Positions 6,612-30,713 of a DNA stretch of 32,000 bases are shown piece after piece. The translations under genes and the position numbers were made by a program. This stretch comes from Candidatus Methanoperedens sp. (lineage in GTDB: Archaea; Halobacteriota; Methanosarcinia; Methanosarcinales; Methanoperedenaceae): positions 1 through 32,000 of the forward strand of contig JAPZAR010000030.1 in the NCBI GenBank assembly GCA_027460535.1. Direction: 5' to 3'. The notes under the pieces were generated by a model. That model was not told where the DNA came from and did not search any database. It worked only from the letters and a program-made list of their open reading frames with translations. Within the stretch, counting starts at the first letter, position 1. The number at the start of each line of letters is the position of its first letter.

Positions 6612-6612
6612 T

Positions 6613-15722: not shown

Positions 15723-15723
15723 C

Positions 15724-15746
15724 ATGCACCGATCGAGATTTGAACC
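15724..15746 (-). other. Orphan 3' fragment of tRNA-Gly (att-like direct repeat)
   Basis: ATGCACCGATCGAGATTTGAACC matches 22 of 23 nt at 30217-30239, which is the T-loop, T-stem 3' strand and acceptor 3' strand of the intact tRNA-Gly. The bases that would form the T-stem 5' strand (GGCGG) cannot pair, so this is only a fragment. Confidence 0.75.
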
Positions 15747-15831
15747 GCCGCCCCCGACACTCGACCCCCCGCGCAGCCGTTGCGGACTCTGCGCACTTTG
15801 CGGTGAAGCCTCCTGATTCTTGCACGGAGCC
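15747..15831 (+). repeat. Copy A of a G+C-rich intergenic element (core TTGCGGACTCTGCGCNCTTTGCGGTG...CCTCCTGATTCTTGCA)
   Basis: The 52-nt core aligns with the copy at 22901-22952 with about 5 mismatches. It directly follows the tRNA fragment. Confidence 0.8.
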
Positions 15832-16028
15832 ACACCTCCCACCAAAAATCAAGCTCCGCAGATCACCCCGCTCTCCAGCATGGCGCCGCTCTGAATCCTG
15901 CGCTCCTGTTCGCATATTCATGGTGTTTTTGAAGCCCTCAGCATGTAACAAGGCATATCATCTCGTAAATATACTAAATAACCTGAATAAGCAGAGAAAT
16001 AAAAGAGCGGACGAAGGTTGCGGTTATC

Positions 16029-16220
16029 ATGAAAGACAGGACTCATACCGAGCATATCGAGCGATGGGCCAAATTTATAAAAACACATCCTCGCTCAATC
16101 TGGATCAGGGAGGTTGGACCTCTGATAGACGCGCAGATAATCATGGCAAATACTTTCTATGAGCGCCTCGCTAAAGTTGAAGGTGGAATTGAGAAAATAA
16201 GAAAACTAAGGAGAATCTAA
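16029..16220 (+). CDS. Hypothetical 63-aa protein directly abutting cas6
   Basis: The ORF ends with TAA at 16218-16220 and the cas6 TTG start is at 16221. AGGAG at ~16208 sits inside its 3' end. No family recognised. Confidence 0.4.
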   Translation: MKDRTHTEHIERWAKFIKTHPRSIWIREVGPLIDAQIIMANTFYERLAKVEGGIEKIRKLRRI

Positions 16221-16988
16221 TTGAGAAGTAAAATAACAGTCAGAAACATCTCAAACCTTCCTGTTAATTTCGATTATCAGTATGGTCTGGCATCAATGCT
16301 CTATTTCAAACTTGCCGGCGCGGATGTCAAGCTGGCTAACGAAACTCATGCTCATCAGGGATTCAAGTTCTATACATTCTCCAATCTTGTGTTGATGAAT
16401 AGAAAAACCTGTAAATCAGGTCTTTGTTTTGAGAGGGCATATTTTATCCTGTCCTCACCTGATGACAGATTCATCAAGAGTTTTACCGAAGGTCTTCTCC
16501 AACACTCAGAATTCTATTTAGATGGACCAGACGGCAGAGCAAATTTCGTAATTGAGCGCATCGAAATACTGAAAGAACCATCTTTAGGCGACGAGTGCTG
16601 GTTCAAGACCGTATCTCCAATCTATGTCAAGACCATGCGTAAAGAGAATGAAAGTTTGAAAGAGGTCGATCTCTATCCTACTGAGCCGAAGTTCTACGAG
16701 AACCTCCACAAGAACCTGACAGAACGCTTCACTGAATTTTATGGCAAAGCACCCCTTGATCATTTCGATGTAATTGAAACTGAGGGCATCAAGCCAAAGC
16801 GCATCAAAATATCAGAAGGCTATAGGCGATGCAATCTCATGAGTCTGCGAATCCAGGCAAGTCCTGAGCTTTTGAAGTTCGCTTACGATGCAGGGCTTGG
16901 GGAGAAGAATGCGATGGGGTTCGGATGTGTGGATGTTGTGGATCAGGGTCAACATATGAAAAATTTAACCGCAGATAAACGCAGATGA
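16221..16988 (+). CDS. cas6: Cas6 CRISPR repeat endoribonuclease
   Basis: 255 aa with a typical N-terminus (MRSKITVRN...) and the C-terminal glycine-rich loop GLGEKNAMGFGCVDVV. It holds the first position of a I-B operon. Confidence 0.9.
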   Translation: MRSKITVRNISNLPVNFDYQYGLASMLYFKLAGADVKLANETHAHQGFKFYTFSNLVLMNRKTCKSGLCFERAYFILSSPDDRFIKSFTEGLLQHSEFYLDGPDGRANFVIERIEILKEPSLGDECWFKTVSPIYVKTMRKENESLKEVDLYPTEPKFYENLHKNLTERFTEFYGKAPLDHFDVIETEGIKPKRIKISEGYRRCNLMSLRIQASPELLKFAYDAGLGEKNAMGFGCVDVVDQGQHMKNLTADKRR

Positions 16989-17000
16989 ACGCAGATTTAT
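16971..17000 (+). repeat. Three tandem 10-bp units GCAGAT(AAAC/GAAC/TTAT) spanning the cas6 stop codon
   Basis: GCAGATAAAC GCAGATGAAC GCAGATTTAT read directly from the sequence. An inverted homologue lies at 23332-23363, with a partial one at 22993-23009. Confidence 0.75.
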
Positions 17001-17084
17001 TAATTGGGCTCTACATTCCGATTACCTGCAAGAAAGCCAAACTAAGAGATGTGCGGGAAAATAGTTTCACCCCGCTCCACAAAG

Positions 17085-17092
17085 TTTTATAA
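17085..17092 (+). promoter_or_regulatory. Candidate archaeal TATA box for the Zn-ribbon ORF/cas8 operon
   Basis: TTTTATAA lies ~25 nt upstream of the start-codon cluster at 17111-17122, which is compatible with a leaderless transcript. Confidence 0.3.
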
Positions 17093-17110
17093 CCTCGCAG
17101 TTAATTTAAA

Positions 17111-17557
17111 GTGTTGATGATGGTGGAGAAAAGAGGTGGAAAAGCAAAGAGCACAAAAATGTTGACAGTAGCATGCTCTATCTGCGGCATGGACATGGAC
17201 TGCCCGGAATCGATGCTGGGGGCGGAGCGGCATTTCTGCGCGCAATGTACTGATCTCATGGCTGAAGGCTATGAGCCTGAGGAACTGAAGATGAGCCCTG
17301 AGGATATAGCGCAGCATTTGCCCGGATGCGATGAGGTATCAATGCTGTTGATGGATCTTACCTTCGATGGCTACTGGAATAAAGTGCTGGAATACGGTAT
17401 AGAGCATTTTGATAATGAAAGGCTTGCGAAACAGAGCTATCTCCGGGGGGCAACTTCGATGCTGGGGCTTTTGATAAGTGCGGGGATGCCGCCGGAGTTT
17501 CTGGATGAACTGGCGGAGGGGATAAGGGGGGAGAGGAGGATGGGGGAGGGGAAGTGA
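17111..17557 (+). CDS. Uncharacterised Zn-ribbon protein encoded between cas6 and cas8
   Basis: 148-aa ORF with CSICG-x15-CAQC followed by a helical region. Its stop TGA (17555-17557) overlaps the cas8 start (GTGATGA). It is G+C-rich, unlike the downstream genes. Confidence 0.5.
   Translation: MLMMVEKRGGKAKSTKMLTVACSICGMDMDCPESMLGAERHFCAQCTDLMAEGYEPEELKMSPEDIAQHLPGCDEVSMLLMDLTFDGYWNKVLEYGIEHFDNERLAKQSYLRGATSMLGLLISAGMPPEFLDELAEGIRGERRMGEGK
17507..17556 (-). repeat. Inverted partial copy (E) of the G+C-rich element, embedded in the 3' end of the Zn-ribbon ORF
   Basis: The reverse complement CACTTCCCCTCCCCCATCCTCCTCTCCCCCCTTATCCCCTCCGCCAGTTC aligns with 22855-22899 (CACTCCCCCGCCCCCCATCCTCCCTCACCCCCGCGCCGCCAGTTC). 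About 38 positions match with a few indels. Confidence 0.7.
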
Positions 17558-18948
17558 TGAATAACGATATCGAAATGAGAAATGAATTTGTTGGGGATCC
17601 AATCGTTGATTCCGGTTTGCTCGCAATTAAATTATTGGGAAATAAAGAAATAAATGACTGTTCAAAAGAAGAATTAAAAAAGATTACAGATGAACTTATT
17701 GAGCTTTATCTAACACCTGCTTGGTCAAAAGATATTTTATCCATATTTCCAAATAGCACTTATGTTCAATATGCCAAGAATTATGATAGAGAAGGAAAGT
17801 CCAAAGAGTTTCTATATGAATTAATAGAAGGTTTAGATAAATCTGAAAATGATGGGGATTATTGTATTTTTTGTGGGAAACATGCATACAAGAGGAAAGA
17901 TAATAAACCTTTCGTCAAAACACAAATACCTTTAGTCGGTTCATCTGATTTTACTAATTTTTCCCCATCATTTAAAAATGGCATTGATATTTGTGCAAAA
18001 TGCGCTTTGGCAATTCAATTTGCACCTATTCTATTTTATAAAACTGGTGGAAAACCAAGTTGCATAAGCTGTAACAATACGGACGTTATGAAAACATTTG
18101 GAGAAGAATGTATAGGATATATTACTCAAAAAAAATTACTGGGTGGTTATAAATCCAAAGACGTTTCTGGCATATTTGATGAAGGTTTTAAATCAACACA
18201 AAATGCCTTGTTTCATTTAGCATATAAAACCTCTACAAAATATAAAAAGTTGGGACTTTTAAAACAAAACGAAGAAATTGTAATATATCGCGTTGATAAT
18301 TACAATCAAAATCCGGCCGGAGTTACAATACATAAAATACCGAATAATATATTCAGATTTGTTATCAATGTGATGACAAGTCCTCAATATAAAAAAAATT
18401 GGTATGATTTACTTTCAAAACATTATGCGAAATCTGATGCAAAAAGTGATTTTCCAGTCTGGAAAGTCAGTTATAATAGGATTCATGATTCTTTATTAAA
18501 AAATGAAAGCATATTATGGGCTTTCAGAGATGATAACGAAAAGAAACCAACATTACCATGGATTATAGTTGAGTCCTATATGGAGTTAGTGAGAAATATG
18601 AATAAACAGAGAATTGAGGGTATCAAAAATCTGGCTGATAAAATCGCCATCTGCATCGAAGAGAATAATAATAAAAAGAGAGTTAATGATATTATTTCAG
18701 CCAGAGATTTTCCAACTTTTAGAAATCAATTGAGATTAGTTTTCAGGGATTGGCAAAAATTAGGTAAGGAGCAACCTATGATAACTTATGAAGATTATAT
18801 CTCAGCAATCATCCCGGAAGATTATTCCAATTGGAAAGAAGTTCAGGATTTGATAATTATAAGGTTATACGAAAAATTGCATAATATGCTATCGAGTGGA
18901 GTAATTGATGATGTCGAACAAGAAAAATCAATAGGTGATGAAGAATGA
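17554..18948 (+). CDS. cas8b: Type I-B large subunit Cas8 (Cas8b/Cst1-like)
   Basis: 464 aa, positioned between cas6 and cas7, with a CIFCG...CAKCA zinc-finger pair as seen in Cst1/Cas8b-type proteins. It overlaps cas7 by 4 nt. Confidence 0.75.
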   Translation: MMNNDIEMRNEFVGDPIVDSGLLAIKLLGNKEINDCSKEELKKITDELIELYLTPAWSKDILSIFPNSTYVQYAKNYDREGKSKEFLYELIEGLDKSENDGDYCIFCGKHAYKRKDNKPFVKTQIPLVGSSDFTNFSPSFKNGIDICAKCALAIQFAPILFYKTGGKPSCISCNNTDVMKTFGEECIGYITQKKLLGGYKSKDVSGIFDEGFKSTQNALFHLAYKTSTKYKKLGLLKQNEEIVIYRVDNYNQNPAGVTIHKIPNNIFRFVINVMTSPQYKKNWYDLLSKHYAKSDAKSDFPVWKVSYNRIHDSLLKNESILWAFRDDNEKKPTLPWIIVESYMELVRNMNKQRIEGIKNLADKIAICIEENNNKKRVNDIISARDFPTFRNQLRLVFRDWQKLGKEQPMITYEDYISAIIPEDYSNWKEVQDLIIIRLYEKLHNMLSSGVIDDVEQEKSIGDEE

Positions 18949-19988
18949 AAACTATAATAGGAACTTACTTAATTGATGCGCCTTTTTCGGCGCTGAATAA
19001 TCGAGGAATAGATCAGGGAGCAGCGAACGAGAATGAAGTAGCAACCAAAGTAATTCAATCTCCAGAAGGAATGAGGCCATACGTTTCAGCACAAGCGTTA
19101 AGATACTGGTGGAGAATGGTTTTAGAAAATAAATTTGGATGGAAATGCTCACCTGTGGAAAAAATTGGAAAAAATCAAGCTGTTACTAAAGGTGATCCGC
19201 TGGAATACGATGATGATGATATTTTTGGGTATATGAGTGCCAGAAAAATTGATACGGGAGAGAAGGATAAAAGTGATAAGCCAAAGATGGAAAATGTAAC
19301 CGTGACAAGGGTATCTCCATTAAAATGCTCGCCTTTAATTGGATTTCCAATACGACCTACTTCAGATTTTGGTGTATTAGTGAGAAAACTTGAAACTGAT
19401 CCAATACTTTTTACTCATCAATTTTATAGCAATATCTTTAAAGGTATTTTTGCGCTGGATATTGATTCCGTAGGGAAATTCACAACAATTGATAAACCTG
19501 GTAGCAAAAACTTGTCAAAAGACCTTGCAGAAAAATATGAAAAAAATGGATTAAAAAAAGATGAAAAAACATATTCACTTCCGTTAGAAAAAAAGAAGAC
19601 GCGAATTTCTGATACCATTAAAGCCTTGAAGTTTTTGAATGGCGGGGCAATGCAGACATTGCATCATACTGATGTAACTCCCAAGTTAATTATGCTGGCA
19701 GTATTGAATAATGGAAATAACATATTCATGGATGTAATGCCTCACAATAAATACGATAATGGATTGGTCAATATCGATGCATTATCTGAGATGTTGGAGG
19801 ATTATAAGGAATCACTGTTGAGCAAAGTCTATATCGGTAAATTATCGGGTTTTGGATCAGATAAAGACAAAGAATTAGAGAGTTTCAAAGCACCATCGGG
19901 AGTTAATGTTGTAATTACGACTCCAGTTAAAGCAATAGATCAATTCATAGAGGAGATATTAACTAATAATAAAATTATTGGCGAGTAA
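18945..19988 (+). CDS. cas7: Cas7 backbone subunit (Cst2/DevR-like)
   Basis: The N-terminus GTYLIDAPFSALNNRG...YVSAQALRYWWR is typical of the Cas7 DevR/Cst2 family. Position in the operon fits. Confidence 0.85.
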   Translation: MKTIIGTYLIDAPFSALNNRGIDQGAANENEVATKVIQSPEGMRPYVSAQALRYWWRMVLENKFGWKCSPVEKIGKNQAVTKGDPLEYDDDDIFGYMSARKIDTGEKDKSDKPKMENVTVTRVSPLKCSPLIGFPIRPTSDFGVLVRKLETDPILFTHQFYSNIFKGIFALDIDSVGKFTTIDKPGSKNLSKDLAEKYEKNGLKKDEKTYSLPLEKKKTRISDTIKALKFLNGGAMQTLHHTDVTPKLIMLAVLNNGNNIFMDVMPHNKYDNGLVNIDALSEMLEDYKESLLSKVYIGKLSGFGSDKDKELESFKAPSGVNVVITTPVKAIDQFIEEILTNNKIIGE

Positions 19989-19989
19989 A

Positions 19990-20643
19990 ATGGAAGTTCT
20001 TCGTGTTGAAATACGGGCAATTACAGCCTCATTTAGATACCCCATGTTTGTGGTATCTTATCAGCCTACATATAAAATTCCTCCAATATCTACGATATAC
20101 GGTTTGCTCTCCGCTGCAAAGGGTGAAAAAGTCAGTATTTATGATTTATCCATTGGTTATGATTTTACATCTAGAGGAAGTGGCGTTGATCTGGAGCGCA
20201 TTCTGGAGTTCGGTGGAGGAGACAAAAATAAACCCGTTTCCTATCTTGGTAGCAATATAATACACAGGGAATTTTTATATGATTGTATATTGACATTATA
20301 TATATCTGATCTAGATTTTAAACAATATTTAGAGAATCCACGTTTCACTCTTTTACTTGGAAGGCAATCAGATTTAGCTAAGATAACAAAGATAAAAGAA
20401 GTGAAATTGATTCCAAAAGAAAATGTTGAAATATATAATACAATTATACCTTTCGATGGAAGAGTGCCAGGGCAAATCGTTGCTTTACCCTCTGATTATA
20501 CTGACAAAGCTGAAAGAAAACCAATTGAAGTAAGAACTTATTGTATCGTAGAATCAAAACAACAGATTGAAAGGGGATACTATGATACTGAGCTAAATAA
20601 GGGAGTTTTTATGCATGAGTTCAACAATAAAAGCCAAAAGTAA
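19990..20643 (+). CDS. cas5: Cas5 (Cas5t-like)
   Basis: MEVLRVEIRAITASFRYP...PPISTIYGLLSAAKG matches the Cas5 N-terminal signature. ATG 19990 lies 2 nt after the cas7 stop; the ORF track uses TTG 19978. Confidence 0.85.
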   Translation: MEVLRVEIRAITASFRYPMFVVSYQPTYKIPPISTIYGLLSAAKGEKVSIYDLSIGYDFTSRGSGVDLERILEFGGGDKNKPVSYLGSNIIHREFLYDCILTLYISDLDFKQYLENPRFTLLLGRQSDLAKITKIKEVKLIPKENVEIYNTIIPFDGRVPGQIVALPSDYTDKAERKPIEVRTYCIVESKQQIERGYYDTELNKGVFMHEFNNKSQK

Positions 20644-22795
20644 TGGCGAATCACTTGAAGAACATATAAATAATTGCCTTAATATTTTTGCTCAACTAAA
20701 GGATATTTATCCAGATTTACAAAAATTTACAAATTATCCTTCTTTTTATAGTGATGCTTTTGATGCTTTGTTTTTTCATGATTTTGGTAAAGCTGCAGAA
20801 GGTTTTCAAAAATCATTATCTCCAAAAGGAGAAAAATGGAAGTATAGGCATGAAATTCTTTCAACACCTTTTATTAACTGCCTGAACAAAGAAAATCTCG
20901 ATTTTGTCAAGATCTTAGTGCTAACTCACCATAAAGATATTAATAAATTAGTCGAATATATTGAAGATAATGATTTTTTGGGGATTCGTTATGAAGAACG
21001 ATTAGAGGAAATCAAACCTAATATAAATGCACTGAATGAAATAATAAAGAAATATCCAGAAATCTCTAAAAAGATATTAGGCTCAATAGAATGCAAGGTC
21101 GATATTATAGAGAAAATATCAAAAGATAAGTCGATATGGGAGGAAATAATACAAAAGAAAAGAATGAACTTTTCATCAAAAATAGGAATCTTTGGAAAAG
21201 GGATGATAAATTCTTGTGATTATTTAGCTTCAAGTGGGATAAAAAAGATACTTAAACCACTACCAAGCTTGAGTGAAGTATATAATTTTAAGTCCTTTAC
21301 GAGTGTTCAGGCAAAATGTTTATCAACAAAAGGTAATGCGATAATTATTTCACCAACTGGTTCTGGAAAAACGGAAGCATCTCTGTTCTGGGCTACAAAT
21401 AATCTCGATAAATCACAAGGAAATAGAATATTTTATGTTTTACCCTACACTGCGAGTATAAACGCAATGTATAGGCGATTATTGATGAAATTAAGCCCAT
21501 ATTATTCAGATGATGGTTGTGTATCGCTATTACATGGAAAAGCGACTTATTTTTTATATAAGATGTTCGAGGATGGTGATTTTAGAGAAATACATAATTT
21601 ATCTAAAAAAATTTATAGTCCATACAAAGTAATGACGCCTTTTCAATGTTTAAAACACTTCTTTTCATTGAAAGGATATGAGATGGGATTATTAGAAATG
21701 TACCGCGGGAGATATATTTTTGATGAGATACACTCCTATGATGCCAAAACAGCGGGATTGATATTATCAATGTGCGAGTATTTGATAGAAGAGAATGATG
21801 CTAAGATATTGATAATGTCTGCAACGATGCCATCATTTCTGAAAAATATGTTTTTAGATAATCTTCATATTGAAAATGAAATGGTTATGGATAAAAAAGA
21901 GTTGAGCAAATACCTTCGCCACAAATGCAAGATAATCGATGGAGATATCCTTGAAAATATTGATTTAATAATAAAAAGATTGCAGAATAAAGAAAAAGTA
22001 TTGGTTGTGTGTAATACAGTAAATAGAGCCCAGGATGTTTATAAATTATTGAGAGATGAAGTTAACGACTCTGCTTTGTTGCATGGCAGATTTATCTTGA
22101 AAGATAGAGAAGCAATTGAAAAAAATCTTGAAAATCTGAATTTATTAGTGGGTACACAAGTCATTGAAGTTTCATTGGATATCGATTATGATGTATGTTT
22201 CTCTGAACCAGCTCCAATTGATGCTTTAATTCAGCGATTTGGAAGAATTAACAGACGAAAAAACAGCGATGGATTACCACTCAAAGGCATTTGCGATGTA
22301 TTTGTTTTTTCAAAAGGTTCTGAAAATGATCGATATATCTATGATACAGAGATTGTAAATAAAACTTTAAAAGTTCTCAATGAAATTGATTTATTGTTTG
22401 AAGATAAATTATATGAAGCAGTCGATGAAATATACATTAATGGTTTTGGCGATAAACTAAAAGAATTTGAAGATACCAAAACTTCATTTAGAAAAATGAT
22501 AGATCGTATAGTACCTTTCAATAATTCAAACACAAAAGAATCAGACTTTTATGATTTATTTAATTCCATAGAAGCGGTTCCTGAAAAATATCGGCATGAA
22601 TATCTTGATTGTATCCGAAATAAAAAGTTATTCGATGCTATGCAATATTGTCTGCAATTAACGAACGGTCAATTTCAAAAACTACTCAAAGAAGGACGGG
22701 TTGATTTCGAAAAAAAGATTTTTATAGAGGCAAAGTATGATCCAGAATTGGGATTATTGATAAATGAACATGAAGAGAATCAAAATATAATATAA
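20615..22795 (+). CDS. cas3: Cas3 HD nuclease-helicase fusion
   Basis: HD domain (HDFGKA, HHKD), Walker A SPTGSGKTEA, DEIH box (FDEIHSYD) and SATMP are all present in this 726-aa protein. Confidence 0.95.
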   Translation: MSSTIKAKSNGESLEEHINNCLNIFAQLKDIYPDLQKFTNYPSFYSDAFDALFFHDFGKAAEGFQKSLSPKGEKWKYRHEILSTPFINCLNKENLDFVKILVLTHHKDINKLVEYIEDNDFLGIRYEERLEEIKPNINALNEIIKKYPEISKKILGSIECKVDIIEKISKDKSIWEEIIQKKRMNFSSKIGIFGKGMINSCDYLASSGIKKILKPLPSLSEVYNFKSFTSVQAKCLSTKGNAIIISPTGSGKTEASLFWATNNLDKSQGNRIFYVLPYTASINAMYRRLLMKLSPYYSDDGCVSLLHGKATYFLYKMFEDGDFREIHNLSKKIYSPYKVMTPFQCLKHFFSLKGYEMGLLEMYRGRYIFDEIHSYDAKTAGLILSMCEYLIEENDAKILIMSATMPSFLKNMFLDNLHIENEMVMDKKELSKYLRHKCKIIDGDILENIDLIIKRLQNKEKVLVVCNTVNRAQDVYKLLRDEVNDSALLHGRFILKDREAIEKNLENLNLLVGTQVIEVSLDIDYDVCFSEPAPIDALIQRFGRINRRKNSDGLPLKGICDVFVFSKGSENDRYIYDTEIVNKTLKVLNEIDLLFEDKLYEAVDEIYINGFGDKLKEFEDTKTSFRKMIDRIVPFNNSNTKESDFYDLFNSIEAVPEKYRHEYLDCIRNKKLFDAMQYCLQLTNGQFQKLLKEGRVDFEKKIFIEAKYDPELGLLINEHEENQNII

Positions 22796-22854
22796 AATTG
22801 CATCAAGAAATCTCATCTCTTATTGCGTTTCATATGGTGTCGCCCTGCCACATC

Positions 22855-23170
22855 CACTCCCCCGCCCCCCATCCTCCCTCACCCCCGCGCCGCCAGTTCT
22901 TTGCGGACTCTGCGCCCTTTGCGGTGATGCCTCCTGATTCTTGCATGGCACCGCATGGAAAAACATCCTAGCAAATGCGATATATCCCATGCAATAAATC
23001 CGCGTTCATAAACCGGAACTTCGGTTTACGCAGTGTTGGGGTATGCGAAGCATATCCCTCGTTTGATAAAACTTTCATAAAGTTTTGCGTCCATCTGCGG
23101 TTTCGTTTTTCGCAGAAGCGCCGGAAATTTATCGCATTCTGTTTATAAAATTTCACCTCAAAGACTGTAA
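22855..23170 (+). repeat. Unit 1 (copy B) of a tandem, degenerate ~325-340-bp non-coding unit
   Basis: Blocks shared with unit 2, in the same order: G+C-rich head, TTTGCGGACTCTGCGC-N-CTTTGCGGTG, CCTGATTC-TGCA, TGCGATATAT, TGCAATAAATC-GCGTT, ATCTGCGG-TTCGTTTTTCG, GAAGCGCC-GAAATTTATC. Confidence 0.75.
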
Positions 23171-23470
23171 GGAGCCCGCCCTCCTGCACGTTCTTCCCCG
23201 ACCCGCCGATACGCGCTCACTTCCGCGCCGCCTGCTCTTTGCGGACTCTGCGCGCTTTGCGGTGGTGCTCCCTGATTCGTGCACAGCGCCGCAGAAAAAA
23301 ACAGTCTGAAGAGTGCGATATATGCCCTTGCAATAAATCTGCGTTAATCTGTGAAATCTGCGGATTCGTTTTTCGGAGAGTGATTAACCATTGTTCTCTG
23401 GAATATTTTTTGCGTTTTTGTGGTTGCTCCGGTCTCCATGAAGCGCCAGAAATTTATCTGGTGCTATATA
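23171..23470 (+). repeat. Unit 2 (copy C) of the tandem non-coding unit
   Basis: Same ordered blocks as unit 1. The core starts at 23238 versus 22900 in unit 1, and the last block starts at 23440 versus 23115. Confidence 0.75.
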
Positions 23471-23581
23471 TATAATTCTTTCTAAAAATTTATTGAAGCA
23501 CAGTAAAATTTTGTGATAAGGCGTCTGAGGTTGTTTTGATCCATAACAATGCTTATATAAGACAATATCAAACTATAATAT

Positions 23582-23812
23582 ATGGCTGAATTGAAAGTTA
23601 CCATTCCTGAAGAACTCTGGAGAAAAATGGCAAGCTTTGAAATAGACTGGCATGCGATCACCAGAGATCTTCTCAAAAAGAAAGTCAATGAACTGAGTGA
23701 TTTGAAATCCATTGTTTCCAAAAGCAAGATGACCGACGAGGATGCGTTAGAGCTTGGTAGAAAGGTTAATAAATCACTTGCAAAAAAATTCAAAACTTCA
23801 GCGATGGGATAA
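23582..23812 (+). CDS. Putative antitoxin partner of the PIN protein (VapB-type)
   Basis: 76-aa ORF whose stop (23810-23812) directly abuts the ATG of the PIN gene. Size and position are typical of antitoxins. Confidence 0.55.
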   Translation: MAELKVTIPEELWRKMASFEIDWHAITRDLLKKKVNELSDLKSIVSKSKMTDEDALELGRKVNKSLAKKFKTSAMG

Positions 23813-24235
23813 ATGCTCCTCATTGTTGATGCCAACGTTGTTTTTTCGGTTCTCATAAAAGGTGGGAAAACATTAGACATTTTTTTTTTGAATAAAGCTA
23901 AAAAAAGATTTGATTTTGTAGCTCCTGAATTTCTTATGGTGGAAGTTGAAAAACACACCAGTGAGATTATTAAGAAAACTGGACTTTCAACAGAAGAGAT
24001 TGGAAAGGTGTTTGATTTTCTTGAAAAAGAAATTGAATTTGTTTCATTTGAAGAGTTTGAAGAATTCTATAAAGAAGCAGAGCAAATATCTCCTGATCCC
24101 AATGATGTTCAGTATTTTGCGCTTGCTATGAAATTAAATGGGGCTATTTGGTCTAATGACAAGGCATTAAAAAAGCAGTTTGTAGTTGATGTGCTATCTA
24201 CAGGGGAAATAATAAAATTAATGGAATTTGAATAG
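23813..24235 (+). CDS. PIN-domain ribonuclease toxin (VapC-like)
   Basis: The sequence MLLIVDANVV..., ...EVEKH..., DPNDVQYFALA and WSNDK supplies the conserved acidic residues of PIN domains. 140 aa. Confidence 0.8.
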   Translation: MLLIVDANVVFSVLIKGGKTLDIFFLNKAKKRFDFVAPEFLMVEVEKHTSEIIKKTGLSTEEIGKVFDFLEKEIEFVSFEEFEEFYKEAEQISPDPNDVQYFALAMKLNGAIWSNDKALKKQFVVDVLSTGEIIKLMEFE

Positions 24236-24256
24236 TTCATATTGTATTATTTTGTT

Positions 24257-24353
24257 ATCCCCCGCTCCCCATCCTCCCTCACCCCCGCGCCGCCAGCTCT
24301 TTGCGGACTCTGCGCCCTCTGCGGTGGGTACGATTCGTACCAATCTGTGCAAG
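24257..24353 (+). repeat. Copy D of the G+C-rich element
   Basis: 24257-24325 is identical to 22858-22926 at 66 of 69 positions (hand alignment). It is followed by the hairpin GGTACG-ATT-CGTACC. Confidence 0.85.
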
Positions 24354-24409
24354 GACAAAGAGTCATCTAAAAAGATGAACCCAACCGTATATTTCATTCA
24401 TCCCAAACC

Positions 24410-24439
24410 TTTATAAATTCAAAAATGAATAAATTCATT
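24410..24439 (+). promoter_or_regulatory. Candidate promoter and operator of the wHTH-NTase/cas4-cas1-cas2 operon
   Basis: TTTATAAA (24410-24417) is followed by the perfect palindrome AATGAAT-AA-ATTCATT (24424-24439), about 20 nt before ATG 24459. Confidence 0.4.
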
Positions 24440-24458
24440 CAAAAATGGTTATATAACT

Positions 24459-25058
24459 ATGAAATTCCACAATGTTCTTGACGAGATATTAGGCAATAGA
24501 ACAAAGGTGAAGCTGCTAAGGGCATTTTTCACCTATCTTGAAAAAGAATTCACAGAAAGCGAACTCCAGAGGATAGCGGGGATACCGCAGGCGAGCGTTC
24601 ACAGGAACGTAAAGTTTCTCCTCGCGAATGGACTTCTTGACAGGGAACGCATCGGAAAGGCAAATCTGTATTCGCTGAACAAAGAGCATATTCTTTATGC
24701 TCTTCTACAGAACATTTTTGAGAATGAAAAAAACCTTCTCTCTGAACTTAAAAAGTCGCTTAAAGGTTCGATTGAAAGCTTTTCTGGGATAGAGTTAGCA
24801 GTACTCTTCGGAAGCGTTTTAAAAGGCACTGAGAGAGCGGACAGCGATATAGATATTTTCATCGTCTGTAAAGCAGATAAATCACAGGTGGAAGAAGAGA
24901 TGAAAAACCTGATCCAGGTTATCGGAAATAAATTCGGAAACCCGGTATCGCCGATGATAAAGAATGATACAGAGATGAAAGACATAAGAAGCAGTTCAAT
25001 ATACAAAGAATTAAAAAGAGGTGAAGTACTCTTTAAGCGCGAGGGATTTGAATGGTGA
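24459..25058 (+). CDS. Winged-HTH / minimal nucleotidyltransferase (MNT-like) fusion protein
   Basis: The N-terminus ESELQRIAGIPQASVHRNVKFLLANGLLDRERIGKANLYSLN is wHTH-like. The C-terminus LFGSVLKGTERADSDIDIFIV carries the GS-x9-11-DxD nucleotidyltransferase motif. Confidence 0.75.
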   Translation: MKFHNVLDEILGNRTKVKLLRAFFTYLEKEFTESELQRIAGIPQASVHRNVKFLLANGLLDRERIGKANLYSLNKEHILYALLQNIFENEKNLLSELKKSLKGSIESFSGIELAVLFGSVLKGTERADSDIDIFIVCKADKSQVEEEMKNLIQVIGNKFGNPVSPMIKNDTEMKDIRSSSIYKELKRGEVLFKREGFEW

Positions 25059-25147
25059 AAGGTCTATCAACAAAACCTGCACAGGAAATGTTCAGGGATG
25101 CAGAACGTCTAGTGGAATGGGTTGAAAATAGGAACATGGTGGCATGA
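25052..25147 (+). CDS. 31-aa micro-ORF bridging the NTase gene and cas4 (possible HEPN remnant)
   Basis: It encodes [31 protein letters not shown]. Its ATG (25052-25054) overlaps the upstream gene's final codons before the TGA (25056-25058), and its TGA (25145-25147) overlaps the cas4 ATG (25144-25146). Confidence 0.3.
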   Translation: MVKGLSTKPAQEMFRDAERLVEWVENRNMVA

Positions 25148-25710
25148 ATCCGCAAGATGTAACTTTGGAAGAAAAAGAAAGACCCCAACCTGAAGACATC
25201 ATGGCCGGTGCCATGCGCATCACAGGCATTAAAGTAACATACTACTTCATCTGCCATACCAAACTCTGGCTGTTTTCGCACAATATCACGCTTGAGAAAG
25301 AGAATGACAATGTGAATATTGGAAAACTCCTGCATGAAGACCGCTATAAGCGCGACTCAAAAGAGATAACAATCGACCAGACGATAAGCATCGATTTCAT
25401 CCGGAAGGGTGATACCATTGTTCTCCATGAAATAAAAAAAACAAAAAGCATGGAAGTGGCACATCGCTGGCAGATGCTATATTACCTGTATTACCTGAAA
25501 TCAAAAGGTATCAGCGCCACAGGCGAAATAAATTATCCCCTCGTTAGCAGGAAAGAAGAGATAGTGCTTCTTGAAAAAGATGAATTGGAAATGGAAAATG
25601 TGATAAATGATATCAGGAAGATCGCAATGGGAAGGATGCCGCAACCTAAAAGGATAAAGATCTGCCCGAAATGCGCTTATTTCGAATTCTGTTTTGGAGA
25701 TGAAGTATGA
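25144..25710 (+). CDS. cas4: Cas4 RecB-like exonuclease with a 4Fe-4S cluster
   Basis: 188 aa with an N-terminal Cys ([10 protein letters not shown]) and a C-terminal [10 protein letters not shown] cluster. It has a 4-nt overlap with cas1. Confidence 0.9.
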
Positions 25711-26696
25711 AGGAAGATTATTATATCACACAGGACGGCGGCCTTACAAGGCATGAAAATACGGTATATTTCGAGAACGAAAACACAAAACGCGCCCTTC
25801 CGGTAAATAAGATATACTCAATATACGCATACGGCAGGCTCAGCTTTTCATCCGGGGTCGTGGATTATCTTGCAAAGAGCGGGATACCGATACACTTCTT
25901 TAATTATTATGGTTTTTACGAAGGCTCATTCTATCCGCGCGAAACGCTGATAAGCGGCGATCTGACCGTGAAGCAGGCATCGAATTATCTCGACAGCGCA
26001 AAGAGACTGATACTTGCAAAATCCTTTGTTGAAGGCGCTTGCGGCAATATCCTGAAAAATCTCAACTATTACGCGCGGGAGATGAAAAGTCTTGAAACAC
26101 ATATCAGCGGCATCGAATCCGAGATCGCGAGACTGCCGGGGACAGCAACTATCCCTGAGGTCATGAATGTAGAAGGACGGATAAGGAATATTTATTATAC
26201 GGCGCTTGATGAGATATTCCCTGAGAATTACAGGATAATCAAAAGGTCAAGGATGCCGCCGGCGAACAGGATGAACACGTTAATCAGTTTCGGGAATTCC
26301 CTGATGTACACAACAACTCTTTCGGAAATATACAATACCCAGTTAAACCCCACTATTTCTTTCCTTCATGAGCCATTTGAAAGGAGATTCTCGCTTGCTC
26401 TTGATGTAAGCGAGATATTCAAACCCATAATTATCGACAGGATCATCCTGAAGCTTGTGAATAAGAACATGCTTGACGATGCTTGTTTCAGGGGGGAGAT
26501 AGGAGATATGCTGCTCAGTGAAAAAGGGAAAAAGCTGTTCCTGGCAGAATATAATGAGAAGCTTTCCACAACTATCAAACACAGAGGACTGGAACAAAAT
26601 GTTTCTTTCAAACGGCTTATAAGACTTGAATTGTATAAACTCGTGAAGCATTGCCTTGGTGAAAAGGATTACAAACCTCTCATTATGTGGTGGTAA
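25707..26696 (+). CDS. cas1: Cas1 integrase
   Basis: 329 aa. [14 protein letters not shown]...[10 protein letters not shown]...[12 protein letters not shown] are typical Cas1 motifs. Confidence 0.95.
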
Positions 26697-26962
26697 TCTT
26701 GTATGTAATAATTGTTTATGATGTGGGGGTGGAAAGGGTGAACAAGGTGAGGATTTACCTCAAGCAGTATCTTAATTGGGTGCAGAATAGTGTGCTGGAA
26801 GGGGAGCTTACAGAACCTGAATACATGAAGATAATGAATGGGCTCAGGGATGTAATAGATGAATCCCAGGATAATGTTATCTGTTATAAATCGAGAGATC
26901 GGAAGTATCTCGCTATTGATGAAATAGGAACTAAAAAGGCTGAGATCACAACAATAATCTGA
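26687..26962 (+). CDS. cas2: Cas2
   Basis: 91 aa. [38 protein letters not shown] is the classic Cas2 N-terminus. It overlaps the cas1 end. Confidence 0.9.
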
Positions 26963-27157
26963 TGTCGATGATCTAAAGTCGTGGATCTTTATAAAGCAAA
27001 TACAAAACCTGGGATGCACGACTGAAAATTCTATTTTTGCAAAGGTTTTTGTGGAATGAGTTCTATTTATATTTGAGAGAAAATCAATAGACGATACCTG
27101 AAAAATTGTCTGTTTTTTCAACCAAATTCAACCGAAAATCCAGCTGGAAAAAGCTTG
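26963..27157 (+). promoter_or_regulatory. CRISPR leader with TATA-like box
   Basis: This A+T-rich 195-bp segment lies between cas2 and the first repeat. TTTATATT at 27066-27073 is a candidate TATA box about 85 nt upstream of repeat 1. Confidence 0.55.
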
Positions 27158-29989
27158 GTTAAAATCAGCCCTTGGAGGGATTGAAATCCTGGAGGAAATG
27201 CTCTTGCCTAAATCTGTTATAAAGTTAAAATCAGCCCTTGGAGGGATTGAAATACGTAGATGTACCCGGTGTTCGCGTCAAGGTTTGTCAGTTAAAATCA
27301 GCCCTTGGAGGGATTGAAATACTATATACGTGCATACATACATAGATATGTATGCTGGTTAAAATCAGCCCTTGGAGGGATTGAAATTATTCTGCTCCTC
27401 AGGCGATGCCGCCTTCCTTGAGGTTAAAATCAGCCCTTGGAGGGATTGAAATGGCGGTGATCGTATGAAATGCATCCACGCGATATATCGTTAAAATCAG
27501 CCCTTGGAGGGATTGAAATATGATATGGTGCCTTGTGCGCGAGGGCAGCCTCCTTGGTTAAAATCAGCCCTTGGAGGGATTGAAATGACTCTCCGGCGCT
27601 GAGCCTTTGGCTGCTGTATCACGTTAAAATCAGCCCTTGGAGGGATTGAAATTACTGAGATCGTGAAGCTGCGAACGCCCCTGGGGAGCGTTAAAATCAG
27701 CCCTTGGAGGGATTGAAATGTGTGAGCCCGAACTTTTCCGAGGTCAGTTCCGCCAGTTAAAATCAGCCCTTGGAGGGATTGAAATCGTGGTACCACGTGC
27801 TCCCCTCAACCCCATAGCGTGCGTTAAAATCAGCCCTTGGAGGGATTGAAATACGGAACGAACACGCACAAAATCCGTCGTGGCGTTATGTTAAAATCAG
27901 CCCTTGGAGGGATTGAAATAAGGCAAAACGCTCGAACAGGATCACCTTCATGGACGGTTAAAATCAGCCCTTGGAGGGATTGAAATCTGCGTATGCAGTG
28001 CGTTTCCGATCTTGTTCACGCGTTGTTAAAATCAGCCCTTGGAGGGATTGAAATTCTCTATGATCCTTATGATCGGGGGTTCATACTACCAGTTAAAATC
28101 AGCCCTTGGAGGGATTGAAATTTAAGACTATGTCGTCTTTTGAGCAGATCGGTAAGAAGTTAAAATCAGCCCTTGGAGGGATTGAAATATATCTGTTTTT
28201 TCAGATATAGAAATTTTGAAATATTGTTAAAATCAGCCCTTGGAGGGATTGAAATATCATAATTATTATGTTTTGAGAGTAGATCATAAGGAGTTAAAAT
28301 CAGCCCTTGGAGGGATTGAAATGTCTCAGCACAGACGACAAGCAACCAGACCTACACGAGTTAAAATCAGCCCTTGGAGGGATTGAAATAGCGATGTAAA
28401 GAACATCCAGGGAGCGCACTTCAAATGTTAAAATCAGCCCTTGGAGGGATTGAAATACGCCTAGGCTTTCCTTGCCTCTTCCCTGACTTCTTGTTAAAAT
28501 CAGCCCTTGGAGGGATTGAAATTCACTTGTAGCCCTTGAGGAAGTTGAGCGTATCGAGGTTAAAATCAGCCCTTGGAGGGATTGAAATCAATAAGAACCT
28601 CCTCTACCCTTGGTTGTTATTTCATGTTAAAATCAGCCCTTGGAGGGATTGAAATAGCAAACAACGATACCGAGCAGCCCGGGTAATTCTCGTTAAAATC
28701 AGCCCTTGGAGGGATTGAAATATTCGCCCTCGCTCTCGGTCATGGTTCCCTATAAAACGTTAAAATCAGCCCTTGGAGGGATTGAAATGAAGTGGACGAG
28801 TGCGGATGGAATTGAAGTCACCATGGTTAAAATCAGCCCTTGGAGGGATTGAAATCATCAACTTGCACCTCACACTTAAGATAATGCTCAATGTTAAAAT
28901 CAGCCCTTGGAGGGATTGAAATAAGGAATGGAGATGAAGATTTCTGCAGGCATACAAGTTAAAATCAGCCCTTGGAGGGATTGAAATACGGTTTGATGAG
29001 CTTCTTGATAAAATACAGAACCAAGTTAAAATCAGCCCTTGGAGGGATTGAAATATGCAAGGTGCTGCTACAACTGCGAACCGTGTGAATCGTTAAAATC
29101 AGCCCTTGGAGGGATTGAAATTTATAACTACTTCGACGTTCCCGCTTGCTGTGCTGAGTTAAAATCAGCCCTTGGAGGGATTGAAATCTTGATACTTCCT
29201 GATTGGTGAAGTTCGCCCATCCGTGTTAAAATCAGCCCTTGGAGGGATTGAAATGGGTCTTTAGCAAGCTACCTGAGTATGTGCAAAAGAATGTTAAAAT
29301 CAGCCCTTGGAGGGATTGAAATATTAATCAAGCAAACCGTTCAAGGAGGAAGGCTTCGGTTAAAATCAGCCCTTGGAGGGATTGAAATATTTCGACTGCT
29401 CCATTTGCAAATATCACGAGCGTGGTTAAAATCAGCCCTTGGAGGGATTGAAATGACAATAGTGACATACAACACAAACGGAATTGCAGGTGTTAAAATC
29501 AGCCCTTGGAGGGATTGAAATATAGCGAATCGAGGCACGACACCAAGTCCGTGCGGAAGTTAAAATCAGCCCTTGGAGGGATTGAAATAGATTAGTTAAA
29601 CTAACTAACGGCTCTGTATATGATGTTAAAATCAGCCCTTGGAGGGATTGAAATATGTAACCAAAAAAGAACCAGATGAAATAATCCCGGCGTTAAAATC
29701 AGCCCTTGGAGGGATTGAAATCAATGATATCATAGGGATGTTGTTATATTAATCCCTTGTTAAAATCAGCCCTTGGAGGGATTGAAATCGAATACCTGGA
29801 AACATGCCGTCATGCCCGGACGAGGGTTAAAATCAGCCCTTGGAGGGATTGAAATGTGATCAAGGCGCTCCCGGACCTCAATGCCCTGGTCGGTTAAAAT
29901 CAGCCCTTGGAGGGATTGAAATGCAGACGTAATCTTAGCTGGGGCAAGTATCCCACTTAGTTAAAATCAGCCCTTGGAGGGATTGAAAT
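27158..29989 (+). CRISPR. CRISPR array: 43 identical 30-nt repeats GTTAAAATCAGCCCTTGGAGGGATTGAAAT and 42 spacers of 35-38 nt
   Basis: Every repeat start was located by hand from 27158 to 29960, with periods of 65-68 nt. The repeat ends in ATTGAAAT (the expected 8-nt 5' handle) and contains the CCCT-TGG-AGGG mini-hairpin. Confidence 0.98.
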
Positions 29990-30217
29990 GGAGTATCTAT
30001 CATGTGGGCACCGAGGGCATTAATTTGCATATCTTGATGTTGATTTTGTCCGGTTAACATTTAATAAGAAATCATCAATAAATAACCGCTGTCCATGAAT
30101 ATTTTAATGCTAGAAAGATGATAATAAATAGTGGATTCATTTTAGATTCTTTTGAAGCATTAGGAATCGTTCAAAAGTATCGATAATCTTTTTGCCCGGT
30201 TTTTTTTAAAACCGAAA

Positions 30218-30289
30218 TGCACCGATCGGGATTTGAACCCGAGTTATTAGCTTGGAAGGCTAAAGTCATAGCCGCTAGACCATCGGTGC
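30218..30289 (-). tRNA. tRNA-Gly (anticodon UCC), no encoded CCA
   Basis: The reverse complement folds as a cloverleaf: acceptor GCACCGA/TCGGTGC, anticodon stem TTAGC/GCTAA with loop CTTCCAA, and T arm TCGGG-TTCAAAT-CCCGA. It is 71 nt plus a discriminator A. Confidence 0.9.
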
Positions 30290-30434
30290 TACGATGCCTT
30301 CCTAAGTGAGTAAAAGGATTTAATTGTTTCGTATTGGGAAATCAGCAATTTCCATACAGGATGTTTGCTAATTATAAATAAAATTTTGTGCAGTATGACA
30401 TATGGACTGCACAGAGTTGATATGGTGAAATTCC

Positions 30435-30713
30435 CTAATCCGGCAACAGCCCCTCCCCCTTGAATATCTTCTTAGCCTCCTCGATCGTGATATCCCCTGG
30501 CGGTATTATCACATCGCTCGGCTTCAGGATCTCATGCGGAATCGGCTTCCCGTACTTTCGCACATAATCGTTGAGCTTCTTGAATTCGCTTTTAAAGACC
30601 TTCTCATTCCCTTTGTTAACGATCTTCACAATATTATTGTCTATTTTATTTATCTCATCCACATGCTTCTTATCGATCTCAAACTGTCCTTCTCCCATTA
30701 ATCTCACTATCAT
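30435..30713 (-). CDS. PspA-associated protein (PspAA-like)
   Basis: 92 aa. MIVRLMGEGQFEID...IPPGDITIEEAKKIF.GEGLLPD matches my memory of the PspAA family. It overlaps the pspA stop by 4 nt. Confidence 0.7.
   Translation of the reverse strand: MIVRLMGEGQFEIDKKHVDEINKIDNNIVKIVNKGNEKVFKSEFKKLNDYVRKYGKPIPHEILKPSDVIIPPGDITIEEAKKIFKGEGLLPD

Follow-up and report, generated by a model that had tools for sequence, protein, structure and literature searches.

The window analysed here, 32,000 nucleotides in length, is part of the chromosome of a methane-oxidising archaeon, Ca. Methanoperedens. Between two short direct repeats it holds a complete type I-B CRISPR-Cas locus with a toxin-antitoxin pair, a wHTH-nucleotidyltransferase (NTase) gene, an array, a 63-aa ORF and GC-rich repeats. 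The features, left to right, are these:

14520-15722, plus strand: LutB-like gene (LUD domain and 4Fe-4S dicluster, Pfam), the conserved left flank
15724-15746, minus strand: orphan 3' fragment of tRNA-Gly(UCC), the attL-like repeat copy (repeat search; no tRNA call)
15747-15850, plus strand: GC-rich dispersed element, copy 1, a C-rich tract followed by a TTTGCGG-N11-TTTGCGG core, beginning right at the repeat boundary
16029-16220, plus strand: 63-aa DUF8150-like ORF
16221-16988, plus strand: cas6 (Pfam Cas6 N- and C-terminal domains), 73-75% nt identity to L029 and L031
17111-17557, plus strand: 148-aa ORF, no family match in a Pfam search
17554-22795, plus strand: effector module, 31.6% GC, 88-95% nt identity to L029, L031, L075, L077 and L079, comprising cas8b (17554-18948), cas7 (18945-19988), cas5 (19978-20643) and cas3 (20615-22795), all by Pfam
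22850-23540, plus strand: two tandem units of ~338 nt, with one GC-rich element in each (22850-22965; 23190-23300)
23582-24235, plus strand: toxin-antitoxin pair, RHH-type antitoxin (23582-23812) and PIN_2 toxin (23813-24235; Pfam)
24255-24345, plus strand: GC-rich element, copy 4
24459-25058, plus strand: wHTH-nucleotidyltransferase, a conserved member of this locus type
25144-26962, plus strand: adaptation module, cas4 (25144-25710), cas1 (25707-26696) and cas2 (26687-26962), by Pfam
27158-29989, plus strand: CRISPR array of 43 identical 30-nt repeats (GTTAAAATCAGCCCTTGGAGGGATTGAAAT) and 42 spacers
29990-30216, no strand: AT-rich stretch (31.7% GC) from array to tRNA, closing with the palindrome CGGTTTT..AAAACCG at 30197-30214
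30217-30239, minus strand: right repeat copy, attR-like, the last 22 nt of the intact tRNA plus 1 nt (repeat search; divergence from L021 at 30217/30216)
30218-30289, minus strand: intact tRNA-Gly(UCC) (ARAGORN, Rfam)
30435-31411, minus strand: right flank, PspAA (30435-30713) and PspA/IM30 (30710-31411)

The sequence-only reading had described the segment as exactly the I-B cas operon, the toxin-antitoxin genes, the wHTH-nucleotidyltransferase and the 43-repeat array. All of these are present; the 63-aa ORF and the four GC-rich repeats had been missed. The type I-B locus is complete, apparently intact, and belongs to a Methanoperedens-specific lineage.

What marks the two ends of this segment? 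By pattern search, ATGCACCGATCGRGATTTGAACC is found at only two places in the window, the repeat copies at either end, both on the plus strand; they are identical at 22 of 23 nt and 14,470 nt apart, and none of 100 dinucleotide shuffles matched the pattern, so that no match is expected by chance. ARAGORN and Rfam each call a single tRNA in the whole window, the tRNA-Gly(UCC) at the right end (66.3 bits), and neither makes a tRNA-like call at the left copy. In the sense of the tRNA, the repeat consists of GG (the end of the 5' T-stem strand), the T-loop, the 3' T-stem strand, the 3' acceptor strand, the discriminator A and 1 nt of trailer, and its sole mismatch lies in the T-stem of the orphan (CCCGA to CTCGA). 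The orphan begins 1 nt after the LutB stop codon. On all these points, the same-orientation repeat, the intact right copy, the orphaned left copy and its distance from LutB, the sequence-only reading was borne out. Its concern that the 23-mer might be a common dispersed sequence is allayed: in the window and the metagenome loci searched the 22-mer is no dispersed repeat, and across 43 metagenome loci every classifiable match is either tRNA-Gly proper or an orphan at the same locus (three, at contig ends, are unclassifiable).

Related genomes help to locate the original tRNA gene. The upstream order CopA-methyltransferase-(Na/H exchanger)-LutB is kept in Methanoperedens MAGs, and a LutB-tRNA-Gly junction without CRISPR-Cas exists in six other species. 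In L001, L004, L042, L047 and L056, loci spread across the LutB tree, the tRNA-Gly 3' end lies 0-10 nt past the LutB stop; in L036 tRNA-Gly likewise adjoins LutB, which is only partial on that contig. About 50 nt of the upstream promoter region of tRNA-Gly is also conserved in common with other Methanoperedens species. The LutB stop codon shows where the 3' end of tRNA-Gly lay ancestrally. Because related genomes have an intact tRNA-Gly exactly where the window has the orphan, the segment is a true insertion at a tRNA gene. The nearest relative, L083 (LutB 94%), shares the TAG-C-ATGCAC junction and continues into the tRNA body where the window turns to island DNA; since its contig breaks off after 37 nt of the tRNA, with one substitution in the acceptor stem, this may be a longer orphan and not an intact gene.

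On the right, L021 is 99.84% identical to the window across PspA-PspAA-tRNA-Gly and parts from it exactly at 30217/30216, entering the trailer TACTGTTTTTC common to most species. PspAA and PspA are near tRNA-Gly in no other species examined, and the right-flank context is thus specific to this lineage. Of the empty site that the sequence-only reading proposed to look for, other species show the left junction; no contig joining LutB, tRNA-Gly and PspAA without the island was found.

Could the orphan be an old relic or a chance match, with CRISPR-Cas native to this position? Every contig with an identical LutB already has the island junction, and the right flank is not comparable with other species, as such a history would allow. 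It is nevertheless very improbable, and is largely refuted by the shuffles, by the adjacency of LutB and tRNA-Gly, which puts the orphan exactly at the tRNA position of six other species, and by the CRISPR-free site there: the sequence-only reading had considered that close relatives might all have the locus in identical context, and no other species examined has CRISPR-Cas at the LutB-tRNA-Gly site.

Other Methanoperedens genomes have homologous I-B loci at different places on the chromosome. Upstream of cas6 in L029 and L031 is a thioredoxin-reductase-like gene, in L077 CDC48 follows the array, and none of these sites has a tRNA. The closest relatives of the island reach 92% aa identity for Cas8b, 98% aa for Cas1 (many Methanoperedens Cas1 proteins are at 95-98%) and 94.6% nt for cas8b-cas3; the Cas proteins are closer to their relatives than is the flanking LutB, at 82% or less save for the one match at 94%. 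The gene order of the island is that of the loci elsewhere, so that arrival of the whole locus as one piece is the simplest reading. A stepwise history, in which a small element first produced the repeat and CRISPR-Cas modules came or were exchanged later, for example at the GC-rich repeats, appears improbable, even if several features are in keeping with it. The locus is a mosaic whose modules differ in history (nt identities to relatives of 73-75% for cas6, 88-95% for cas8b-cas3, about 91% for the NTase gene and 78-86% for cas4-cas2), and in all related loci variable toxin-antitoxin cassettes lie between GC-rich direct repeats, one such repeat abutting the orphan here. Moreover, the left end of the island (the 63-aa ORF with 15950-16012) is what remains of a "187 aa + DUF8150" cassette, one that in L079 is internal to the locus, between cas3 and the NTase gene, and small repeat-flanked remnants without large cargo exist at the same tRNA site in L039 and L002. 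Against this, the repeats enclose nothing beyond the canonical locus and end DNA of about 0.7 kb.

As the sequence-only reading had stated, no island ORF has a recombinase domain by Pfam or recombinase similarity search; neither an integrase, whole, split or fragmentary, nor any other backbone gene lies between the repeats. Might the Cas machinery have moved itself? The island has a cas1 gene, and casposons go into the 3' ends of tRNA genes, duplicating their target. Casposon-like Cas1 integration with target-site duplication, or a CRISPR-associated transposon, is still the least probable origin considered and was rejected: terminal inverted repeats are absent at 15747 and 30216, there are no PolB or Tns genes, cas1 belongs to an ordinary cas4-cas1-cas2 operon, and the locus includes cas3.

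The best explanation of the whole, favoured with modest confidence, is that 15747-30216 was acquired horizontally by Campbell-type integration into the 3' end of tRNA-Gly(UCC). A single reciprocal crossover would have joined the last ~22 nt of the tRNA gene, from T-loop to discriminator, to an identical stretch on circular donor DNA. Such an att-site event would rebuild an intact tRNA at the right end, its 3' part and trailer derived from the donor, while the original 3' end, now displaced, would persist as the 23-nt orphan at its old distance of 1 nt from the LutB stop. The stretch at 29990-30216, which has no homologue among the fetched loci, would then be donor DNA beside the crossover. The catalyst was most likely a tRNA-targeting tyrosine integrase from a Methanoperedens plasmid or extrachromosomal element (ECE). 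In this genus, ECEs use tyrosine integrases to enter tRNA genes and swap CRISPR-Cas loci with chromosomes (PMC13444090), and plasmids encode phage-type integrases (PMC9674854). The integrase gene may have gone with the rest of the backbone, perhaps when DNA between the GC-rich direct repeats was deleted (one of these repeats lies against the orphan), or it may never have been carried in cis, the enzyme acting in trans. Any backbone deletion must have been very clean, since the DNA outside the canonical locus amounts to just 472 nt at the left end and 227 nt at the right. The earlier proposal of site-specific integration thus stands as to the insertion itself; a donor circle, an integrase and a subsequent deletion are what we infer. 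No sign of present mobility was found, and the island now serves simply as a chromosomal immune locus.

Three other lineages (L039, L002 and L016) have orphan tRNA-Gly pieces at the same site with other cargo, such as AbiTii, and the LutB-tRNA-Gly site is a tRNA hot spot for insertion. No integrase or recombinase, complete or split, was detected in them; the 22-mer, the right junction and the GC motif matched no viral contigs, and no element with this att core was found. Orphan length varies between lineages. The window has 23 nt, L016 a degenerate piece of about 29-38 nt, L039 43-49 nt followed by a diverged trailer of ~20 nt, and L002 at least 59 nt. The L016 orphan is joined without a gap to an internal piece of LutB and is followed by AbiTii.

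These orphans also fit recombination without an integrase, a serious rival that we nonetheless consider unlikely. A fragment of another Methanoperedens chromosome or ECE, ending in its own tRNA-Gly, would have been end-joined to a circle and entered by one homologous crossover on a tRNA sequence identical genus-wide (the 3' part is 100% conserved across about 50 loci); the repeat length would merely reflect where the donor fragment ended. The variable orphan lengths agree with this, four of four insertions at the site lack an integrase, and the L016 fusion is the outcome expected of a circularised chromosomal LutB-tRNA fragment. On the other side, 22-23 nt is short for RadA-mediated recombination, even if Sulfolobus is able to recombine on short homologies. 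The span of the repeat from T-arm to 3' end is the classic att geometry of integrases (PMC8371274). Such an origin also moves the question back one step, because the donor itself would need CRISPR-Cas beside tRNA-Gly.

The island is a clear example of a known route by which defence genes move, not a new type of system. Cryptic integrated elements of Thaumarchaeota were reportedly classed as iMGEs on grounds that include integrase genes, and are said to carry further element genes. Two of them, NitVie-E4 and NitEve-E4, are likewise archaeal, chromosome-integrated and equipped with a full I-B adaptation and effector suite and an array (Krupovic et al. 2019, PMC6563490). The present island differs in having only the CRISPR-Cas locus between its att-like repeats, without an integrase. 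In archaeal tRNA-gene capture, including that by suicidal SSV/pT26-2-type integrases, which also occur in Methanosarcinales (PMC8371274), an intact tRNA and a direct repeat of its 3' part likewise surround foreign DNA unable to excise (She et al. 2001, 2004 as cited in PMC8371274; PMC7253208). After integration of the suicidal type, int(N) and int(C) halves stay beside the att copies, whereas no such ORFs or recombinase similarity were detected in the island. In Vibrio, CRISPR-Cas islands are said to keep integrases or transposition genes in most cases. Those islands, tRNA-linked and bacterial, unlike the present host, likewise bring CRISPR-Cas cargo to chromosomal hot spots and are patchy among relatives (PMC6360697). 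The structural class that the island fits best is the bacterial cis-mobilizable element (CIME), likewise att-flanked and devoid of recombination or transfer genes (PMC5704250, PMC6323972); CIMEs are defined by a cognate ICE or IME with the same att site able to mobilise them, whereas the island has an archaeal host, no cognate element was found for it, and any mobility is hypothetical. Within the genus, a 409-kb ECE at tRNA-Asp shares the tRNA target, short direct repeats (14 bp) and ECE-chromosome exchange of CRISPR-Cas (PMC13444090); it keeps a tyrosine integrase by its att site and a full backbone, whereas the 14.5-kb island at tRNA-Gly has neither.

Some smaller variations among the related loci may be added. 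The HEPN partner of the wHTH-nucleotidyltransferase, absent from the window, is present in L075 and L079. An ORF at the position of the 148-aa ORF also exists in related loci, with 148 aa in L031 and 104-118 aa in others. L077 has the same toxin-antitoxin pair, 85% identical in nucleotide sequence, and its antitoxin matches RHH_12.

The 14,470 nt between the two repeat copies (15747-30216) are well supported as a real insertion on the 3' side of tRNA-Gly(UCC). The ends of the island are marked by the 23-mer ATGCACCGATCG(A/G)GATTTGAACC, which occurs twice in the window, both times on the + strand, with 22 of 23 nt matching; none of 100 dinucleotide-preserving shuffles gave such a match, even with 3 mismatches allowed, and none is expected by chance. 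ARAGORN and Rfam agree on a single tRNA in the window, the tRNA-Gly(UCC) on the minus strand. Read in the tRNA sense, the repeat spans the last 2 bases of the 5' T-stem strand, the T-loop, the 3' T-stem strand, the 3' acceptor strand, the discriminator, and 1 trailer base. The sole difference between the copies is a T-stem substitution in the left one, which stands without tRNA context just past the LutB-like ORF (LUD domain plus 4Fe-4S dicluster; end at 15722). The repeat, the intact tRNA on the right, and the orphan on the left had been proposed by the sequence-only reading, and the pattern scan with its shuffles and the two tRNA predictions bear all of them out. A tRNA-integrated element is recognised by an intact tRNA on one side and, on the opposite side, a direct repeat of that tRNA's 3' part; the island has both.

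Features of the island and its flanks, in order of position
14520-15722: LutB-like gene (left flank)
15724-15746, + strand: orphan copy of the 23-mer
15747-15850, + strand: first GC-rich repeat
16029-16220: 63-aa DUF8150-like ORF (orf63)
next: cas6, then a 148-aa ORF whose position is kept in related loci
next: cas8b, cas7, cas5, cas3
22850-22965 and 23190-23300, + strand: two further GC-rich repeats, within a 338-nt tandem duplication
next: RHH/PIN toxin-antitoxin pair
24255-24345, + strand: fourth GC-rich repeat
next: wHTH-nucleotidyltransferase (NTase gene)
next: cas4, cas1, cas2
27158-29989: array of 43 identical repeats
up to 30216: AT-rich DNA, 227 nt
30217-30239, + strand: right copy of the 23-mer
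30218-30289, minus strand: tRNA-Gly(UCC)
30435-31411: PspAA and PspA (right flank)

How did this site look before the island was there? A LutB protein search of species-representative genomes returned 16 loci, all from Ca. Methanoperedens, at 70-82% identity, and the upstream order CopA, methyltransferase, (Na/H exchanger), LutB is kept across the genus. In five loci (L001, L004, L042, L047, L056), an intact tRNA-Gly(UCC) 3' end lies 0-10 nt past the LutB stop codon, and a sixth (L036) has the same adjacency, with a LutB that is partial on its contig. The genomes with an abutting tRNA are scattered over the LutB neighbour-joining tree, including a deep branch, so this arrangement is probably ancestral; one clade carries 0.6-2.6 kb of other DNA between LutB and tRNA-Gly, followed by the conserved tRNA trailer TACTGTTTTTC. 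That six species have the tRNA at the very position of the orphan supports the earlier proposal of a true insertion at the tRNA gene. The 22-nt core of the repeat, in 59 other loci (43 from metagenomes, 16 from genomes), is almost always the tRNA gene itself, 3 matches at contig ends being unclassifiable, and a second copy is found among the 43 metagenome loci only in L039; contrary to the earlier concern, it is not a dispersed sequence. A relic or a chance match is essentially excluded as an origin of the repeat.

A large protein collection holds a single LutB closer than 82%, namely P0191 (94%). Its contig (L083, 1.7 kb) reads ...TAG-C-ATGCACAGATCGGGATTTGAACC-CGAGTTATTAGCTT and then ends. 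The LutB junction is identical to that of the window, and the tRNA body goes on where the window turns to GCCGCCCCCGAC; with 1 acceptor-stem substitution and a stop after 37 nt, this may be an intact gene or a longer orphan. Window 4520-15957 is 100% identical to a contig of NCBI assembly GCA_027460495.1, and same-strain short-read contigs break near 15957, 16996, and 29960, i.e., at repeats.

On the right side, the tRNA and ~50 nt of upstream promoter region are kept in other Methanoperedens species. Beyond this region come PspAA and PspA, then HerA-like, ThiC, and Hel308 genes; as PspAA/PspA stand near tRNA-Gly in no other species examined, a lineage-specific rearrangement lies on this side. 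One 1.4-kb contig (L021, 1-1413) follows window 30217-31486 for 1270 nt at 99.84% identity, from upstream of PspA to the tRNA, and departs from it exactly at 30217/30216, into the common tRNA trailer, tactgtttttctaatatcag..., which is homologous to the trailer of locus L012 and to the orphan's flank in L039. A near-identical PspA-tRNA segment therefore exists without the island junction. At its other end, L021 has a SurE-like C-terminus (a 44-aa partial ORF, assigned by reading alone) in place of the HerA-like gene, so it cannot be read simply as the isogenic empty site. In this other population the small PspA-PspAA-tRNA-Gly segment thus has a different context on both sides, which suggests either mosaicism among strains or transfer of the segment. 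Of the empty site that the sequence-only reading proposed to look for, the two junctions were seen only apart, the left one in the six species (and shared by L083), the right one without the island in L021. No contig joining LutB, tRNA-Gly, and PspAA without the island was found, and those with identical LutB, PspA, PspAA, or orf63 are in the integrated state or break at repeats, none of them being an empty site or having a circular junction.

The cargo is a complete type I-B CRISPR-Cas system: cas6, cas8b, cas7, cas5, and cas3 with cas4, cas1, cas2, and an array (Pfam, repeat analysis); the source names for homologues of its proteins are Cas8b1/Cst1 and Cas1b. In the contigs of the nearest homologues of Cas8b (92% and 77% aa identity), cas6 comes right after a thioredoxin-reductase-like gene. 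The neighbourhood of that site is kept (DUF5788 in L029, an acetyltransferase, a GFO/IDH oxidoreductase, UDP-glucose dehydrogenase) and holds no tRNA. The locus in L077 ends in an array of 104 repeats, with CDC48 next to it. The window and the related loci have their genes in one common order, toxin-antitoxin slot and NTase gene included. Nucleotide identity varies by module: 73-75% for cas6, 88-95% for cas8b-cas3, ~91% for the NTase gene, and 78-86% for cas4-cas2. At the protein level, Cas1 reaches 98% and Cas8b 92% identity to other Methanoperedens, versus flank maxima of 82% for LutB (apart from the single 94% match), 88% for CopA, and 75% for the methyltransferase. The higher cas identities suggest, for genomes that are unmatched in this comparison, that the cas modules spread recently between species. 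The GC content of cas8b-cas3 (31.6% vs ~43% in the left flank) is common to the relatives and is thus uninformative on the insertion in the window.

All 43 repeats of the array are identical, including the last, without a degenerate terminal repeat, and differ at 2 positions from the repeat of L075 and L077. No spacer is common with the arrays of these two loci or has a match in the fetched loci, so co-transfer of the array finds no support here. The wHTH-nucleotidyltransferase stands without a HEPN partner (gap 25059-25143 before cas4); L075 and L079 have a HEPN gene of 137-138 aa between the nucleotidyltransferase and cas4. The window seems to have lost ~0.3 kb at this point, so that its MNT-type gene is now an orphan.

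Homology to L029 begins at 16219, and the canonical locus runs from the cas6 start codon to the end of the array. In the left 472 nt of the island, a GC-rich element is joined by what remains of a "187 aa + DUF8150" cassette, which in L079 sits between cas3 and the NTase gene. The right 227 nt have no homologue among the fetched loci, and a scan of this end for sigma-70 promoters and terminators, with a sigma-70 model ill-suited to archaea, gave nothing. That the locus is a mosaic speaks for its stepwise assembly within a hot spot, an origin that is nevertheless rather unlikely.

Another question is what moved the island. Pfam searches of its cas and non-cas ORFs on both strands, including the ten remaining ORFs, found no tyrosine or serine recombinase and no transposase, as had been read from the sequence between the repeats, and no integrase gene beside the att site. 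Split "suicidal" integrases are a known concept (PMC8371274, PMC7253208). The left repeat copy is crossed only by ORFs 15740-16162 (+) and 15697-15951 (-), neither with a family match, and the right copy by no ORF of at least 60 aa; a split integrase of the SSV/pT26-2 type was rejected because no integrase-like ORF spans either copy. A casposon was rejected on the grounds that the island ends are not inverted repeats, that PolB is absent, and that Cas1 lies within a cas4-cas1-cas2 operon, and a Tn7-like CRISPR-associated transposon because there are no Tns genes and cas3 is complete. Mobility driven by Cas1 or a transposon is essentially excluded. Among the 43 metagenome and 16 genome loci with exact 22-mer matches, none has an integrase beside the tRNA-Gly 3' end. 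Viral contigs gave no exact match to the GC-rich motif, the right junction (attP-like), or the 22-nt core, and hence no cognate element with the same att core. A circular form of the island would read ...AAAACCGAA-ATGCACCGATCGGGATTTGAACC-GCCGCCCCCGAC... across its junction; contigs bearing orf63 hold the integrated junction only, and none a circular one.

The same tRNA has received other DNA. L039:5564-6958, from another species, is an independent insertion: an orphan of 43-49 nt with a diverged ~20-nt trailer, then 1.3 kb in which the only ORF encodes a 323-aa membrane protein without a family match and no integrase is present, then the intact tRNA. L002:3304-3365 is a pseudo-tRNA-Gly of at least 59 nt, with 3 substitutions at the acceptor end, 0.9 kb 3' of an intact tRNA-Gly. 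In L016:12491-13854, a degenerate orphan runs directly into a C-terminal LutB fragment of 79 aa, and an AbiTii-like gene and the intact tRNA come next. Such a structure resembles what would remain after a piece of another strain's chromosome had circularised and entered by one crossover. L063:2364-5167 has a similar LutB fragment and AbiTii beside tRNA-Gly, with no orphan detected. Pfam found no recombinase among the tested cargo ORFs of the other species, and PADLOC, on an overlapping set, found defence-related families only, e.g., AbiTii. All four insertions at this site (the window and three others) are without an integrase.

The geometry of the island, with the orphan at the ancestral position, the intact tRNA with a different trailer at the far end, and a repeat running from the T-arm to the 3' end, is the one expected if the 3' end of the tRNA had undergone one reciprocal crossover with an identical stretch of a circular DNA. 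An integrase-catalysed event is the most likely cause, at somewhat better than even probability; the integrase would have been lost through deletion or have acted in trans. tRNA genes are typical integration sites of archaeal integrases (PMC8371274), the extrachromosomal elements (ECEs) of Methanoperedens use tyrosine integrases to enter tRNA genes and trade CRISPR-Cas loci with the chromosomes (PMC13444090), and Methanoperedens plasmids encode phage-type integrases (PMC9674854). The main rival needs no integrase at all: a circularised fragment would have entered through homologous recombination with the invariant sequence of the tRNA. The orphan lengths, which vary between insertions, the structure of L016, and the lack of an integrase in each of the four insertions argue for it, and it is unlikely rather than negligible. 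Do integrases act in trans at this site, or does short homology at conserved tRNA sequences suffice for recombination? The four integrase-less insertions raise this question, and this repeated integrase-less use of tRNA-Gly in the genus is the most interesting aspect of the island.

Ca. Methanoperedens is a genus known for its large extrachromosomal elements, and the island offers a clean case, dated by comparison, in which an entire CRISPR-Cas locus has come to lie at another chromosomal position within it. Defence cargo has repeatedly been inserted on the 3' side of tRNA-Gly(UCC) beside the LutB-like gene, CRISPR-Cas in the window and AbiTii elsewhere. As concepts, defence islands at tRNA hot spots and archaeal gene capture are established, and CRISPR-Cas on tRNA-linked islands is reportedly known in bacteria from a Vibrio study. 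Complete I-B loci on integrated archaeal elements are already described (PMC6563490), as is gene capture at archaeal tRNA genes (references in PMC8371274). With an att site at each end and neither recombination nor transfer genes, the island fits bacterial cis-mobilizable elements (CIMEs) structurally (PMC5704250, PMC6323972), although no cognate element was found for it and its mobility is only putative. It is decidedly unlikely that the island is an archaeal counterpart of a CIME, a bare CRISPR-Cas cassette with att-like ends moved between Methanoperedens chromosomes and ECEs by trans integrases or by integrase-free tRNA-Gly recombination of circularised fragments; if so, tRNA-Gly would be a genus-wide exchange point for defence genes.

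The GC-rich element consists of a ~35-nt C-rich tract and the core CTCTTTGCGGACTCTGCGCNCTTTGCGGTGA (TTTGCGG-N11-TTTGCGG, heptads 18 nt apart), and its four copies in the window lie 150-400 nt upstream of genes. In all related I-B loci it stands on both sides of the variable toxin-antitoxin cassettes that separate cas3 from cas4. It also occurs in L029, L031, L075, L077, and L079, and upstream of LutB at L039:3203-3310. As a dispersed Methanoperedens repeat, it was rejected as an island-specific recombination site, and its position at the island boundary is only suggestive. It may act as a promoter or bind a regulator, or it may be a repeat prone to recombination; since all four window copies share one orientation, recombination between them could delete the intervening DNA.

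Some smaller features complete the picture. A G-rich 26-mer just before the cas8b start (17526-17551) is the inverted complement (77%) of a C-rich tract after cas3 (22861-22886, also 24267-24286); the effector module, with its 31.6% GC, is thus bracketed by inverted GC-rich stretches, which could be a low-complexity coincidence. Between cas3 and RHH/PIN, the non-coding ~338-nt unit is duplicated in tandem over 22865-23540, with ~77-92% identity between segments, and holds short palindromes such as ATCTGCGGTTTCGTTTTTCGCAGA. Far from the island, an intergenic 31-nt tandem repeat (2.5 copies, 83% matches) lies at 6401-6478.
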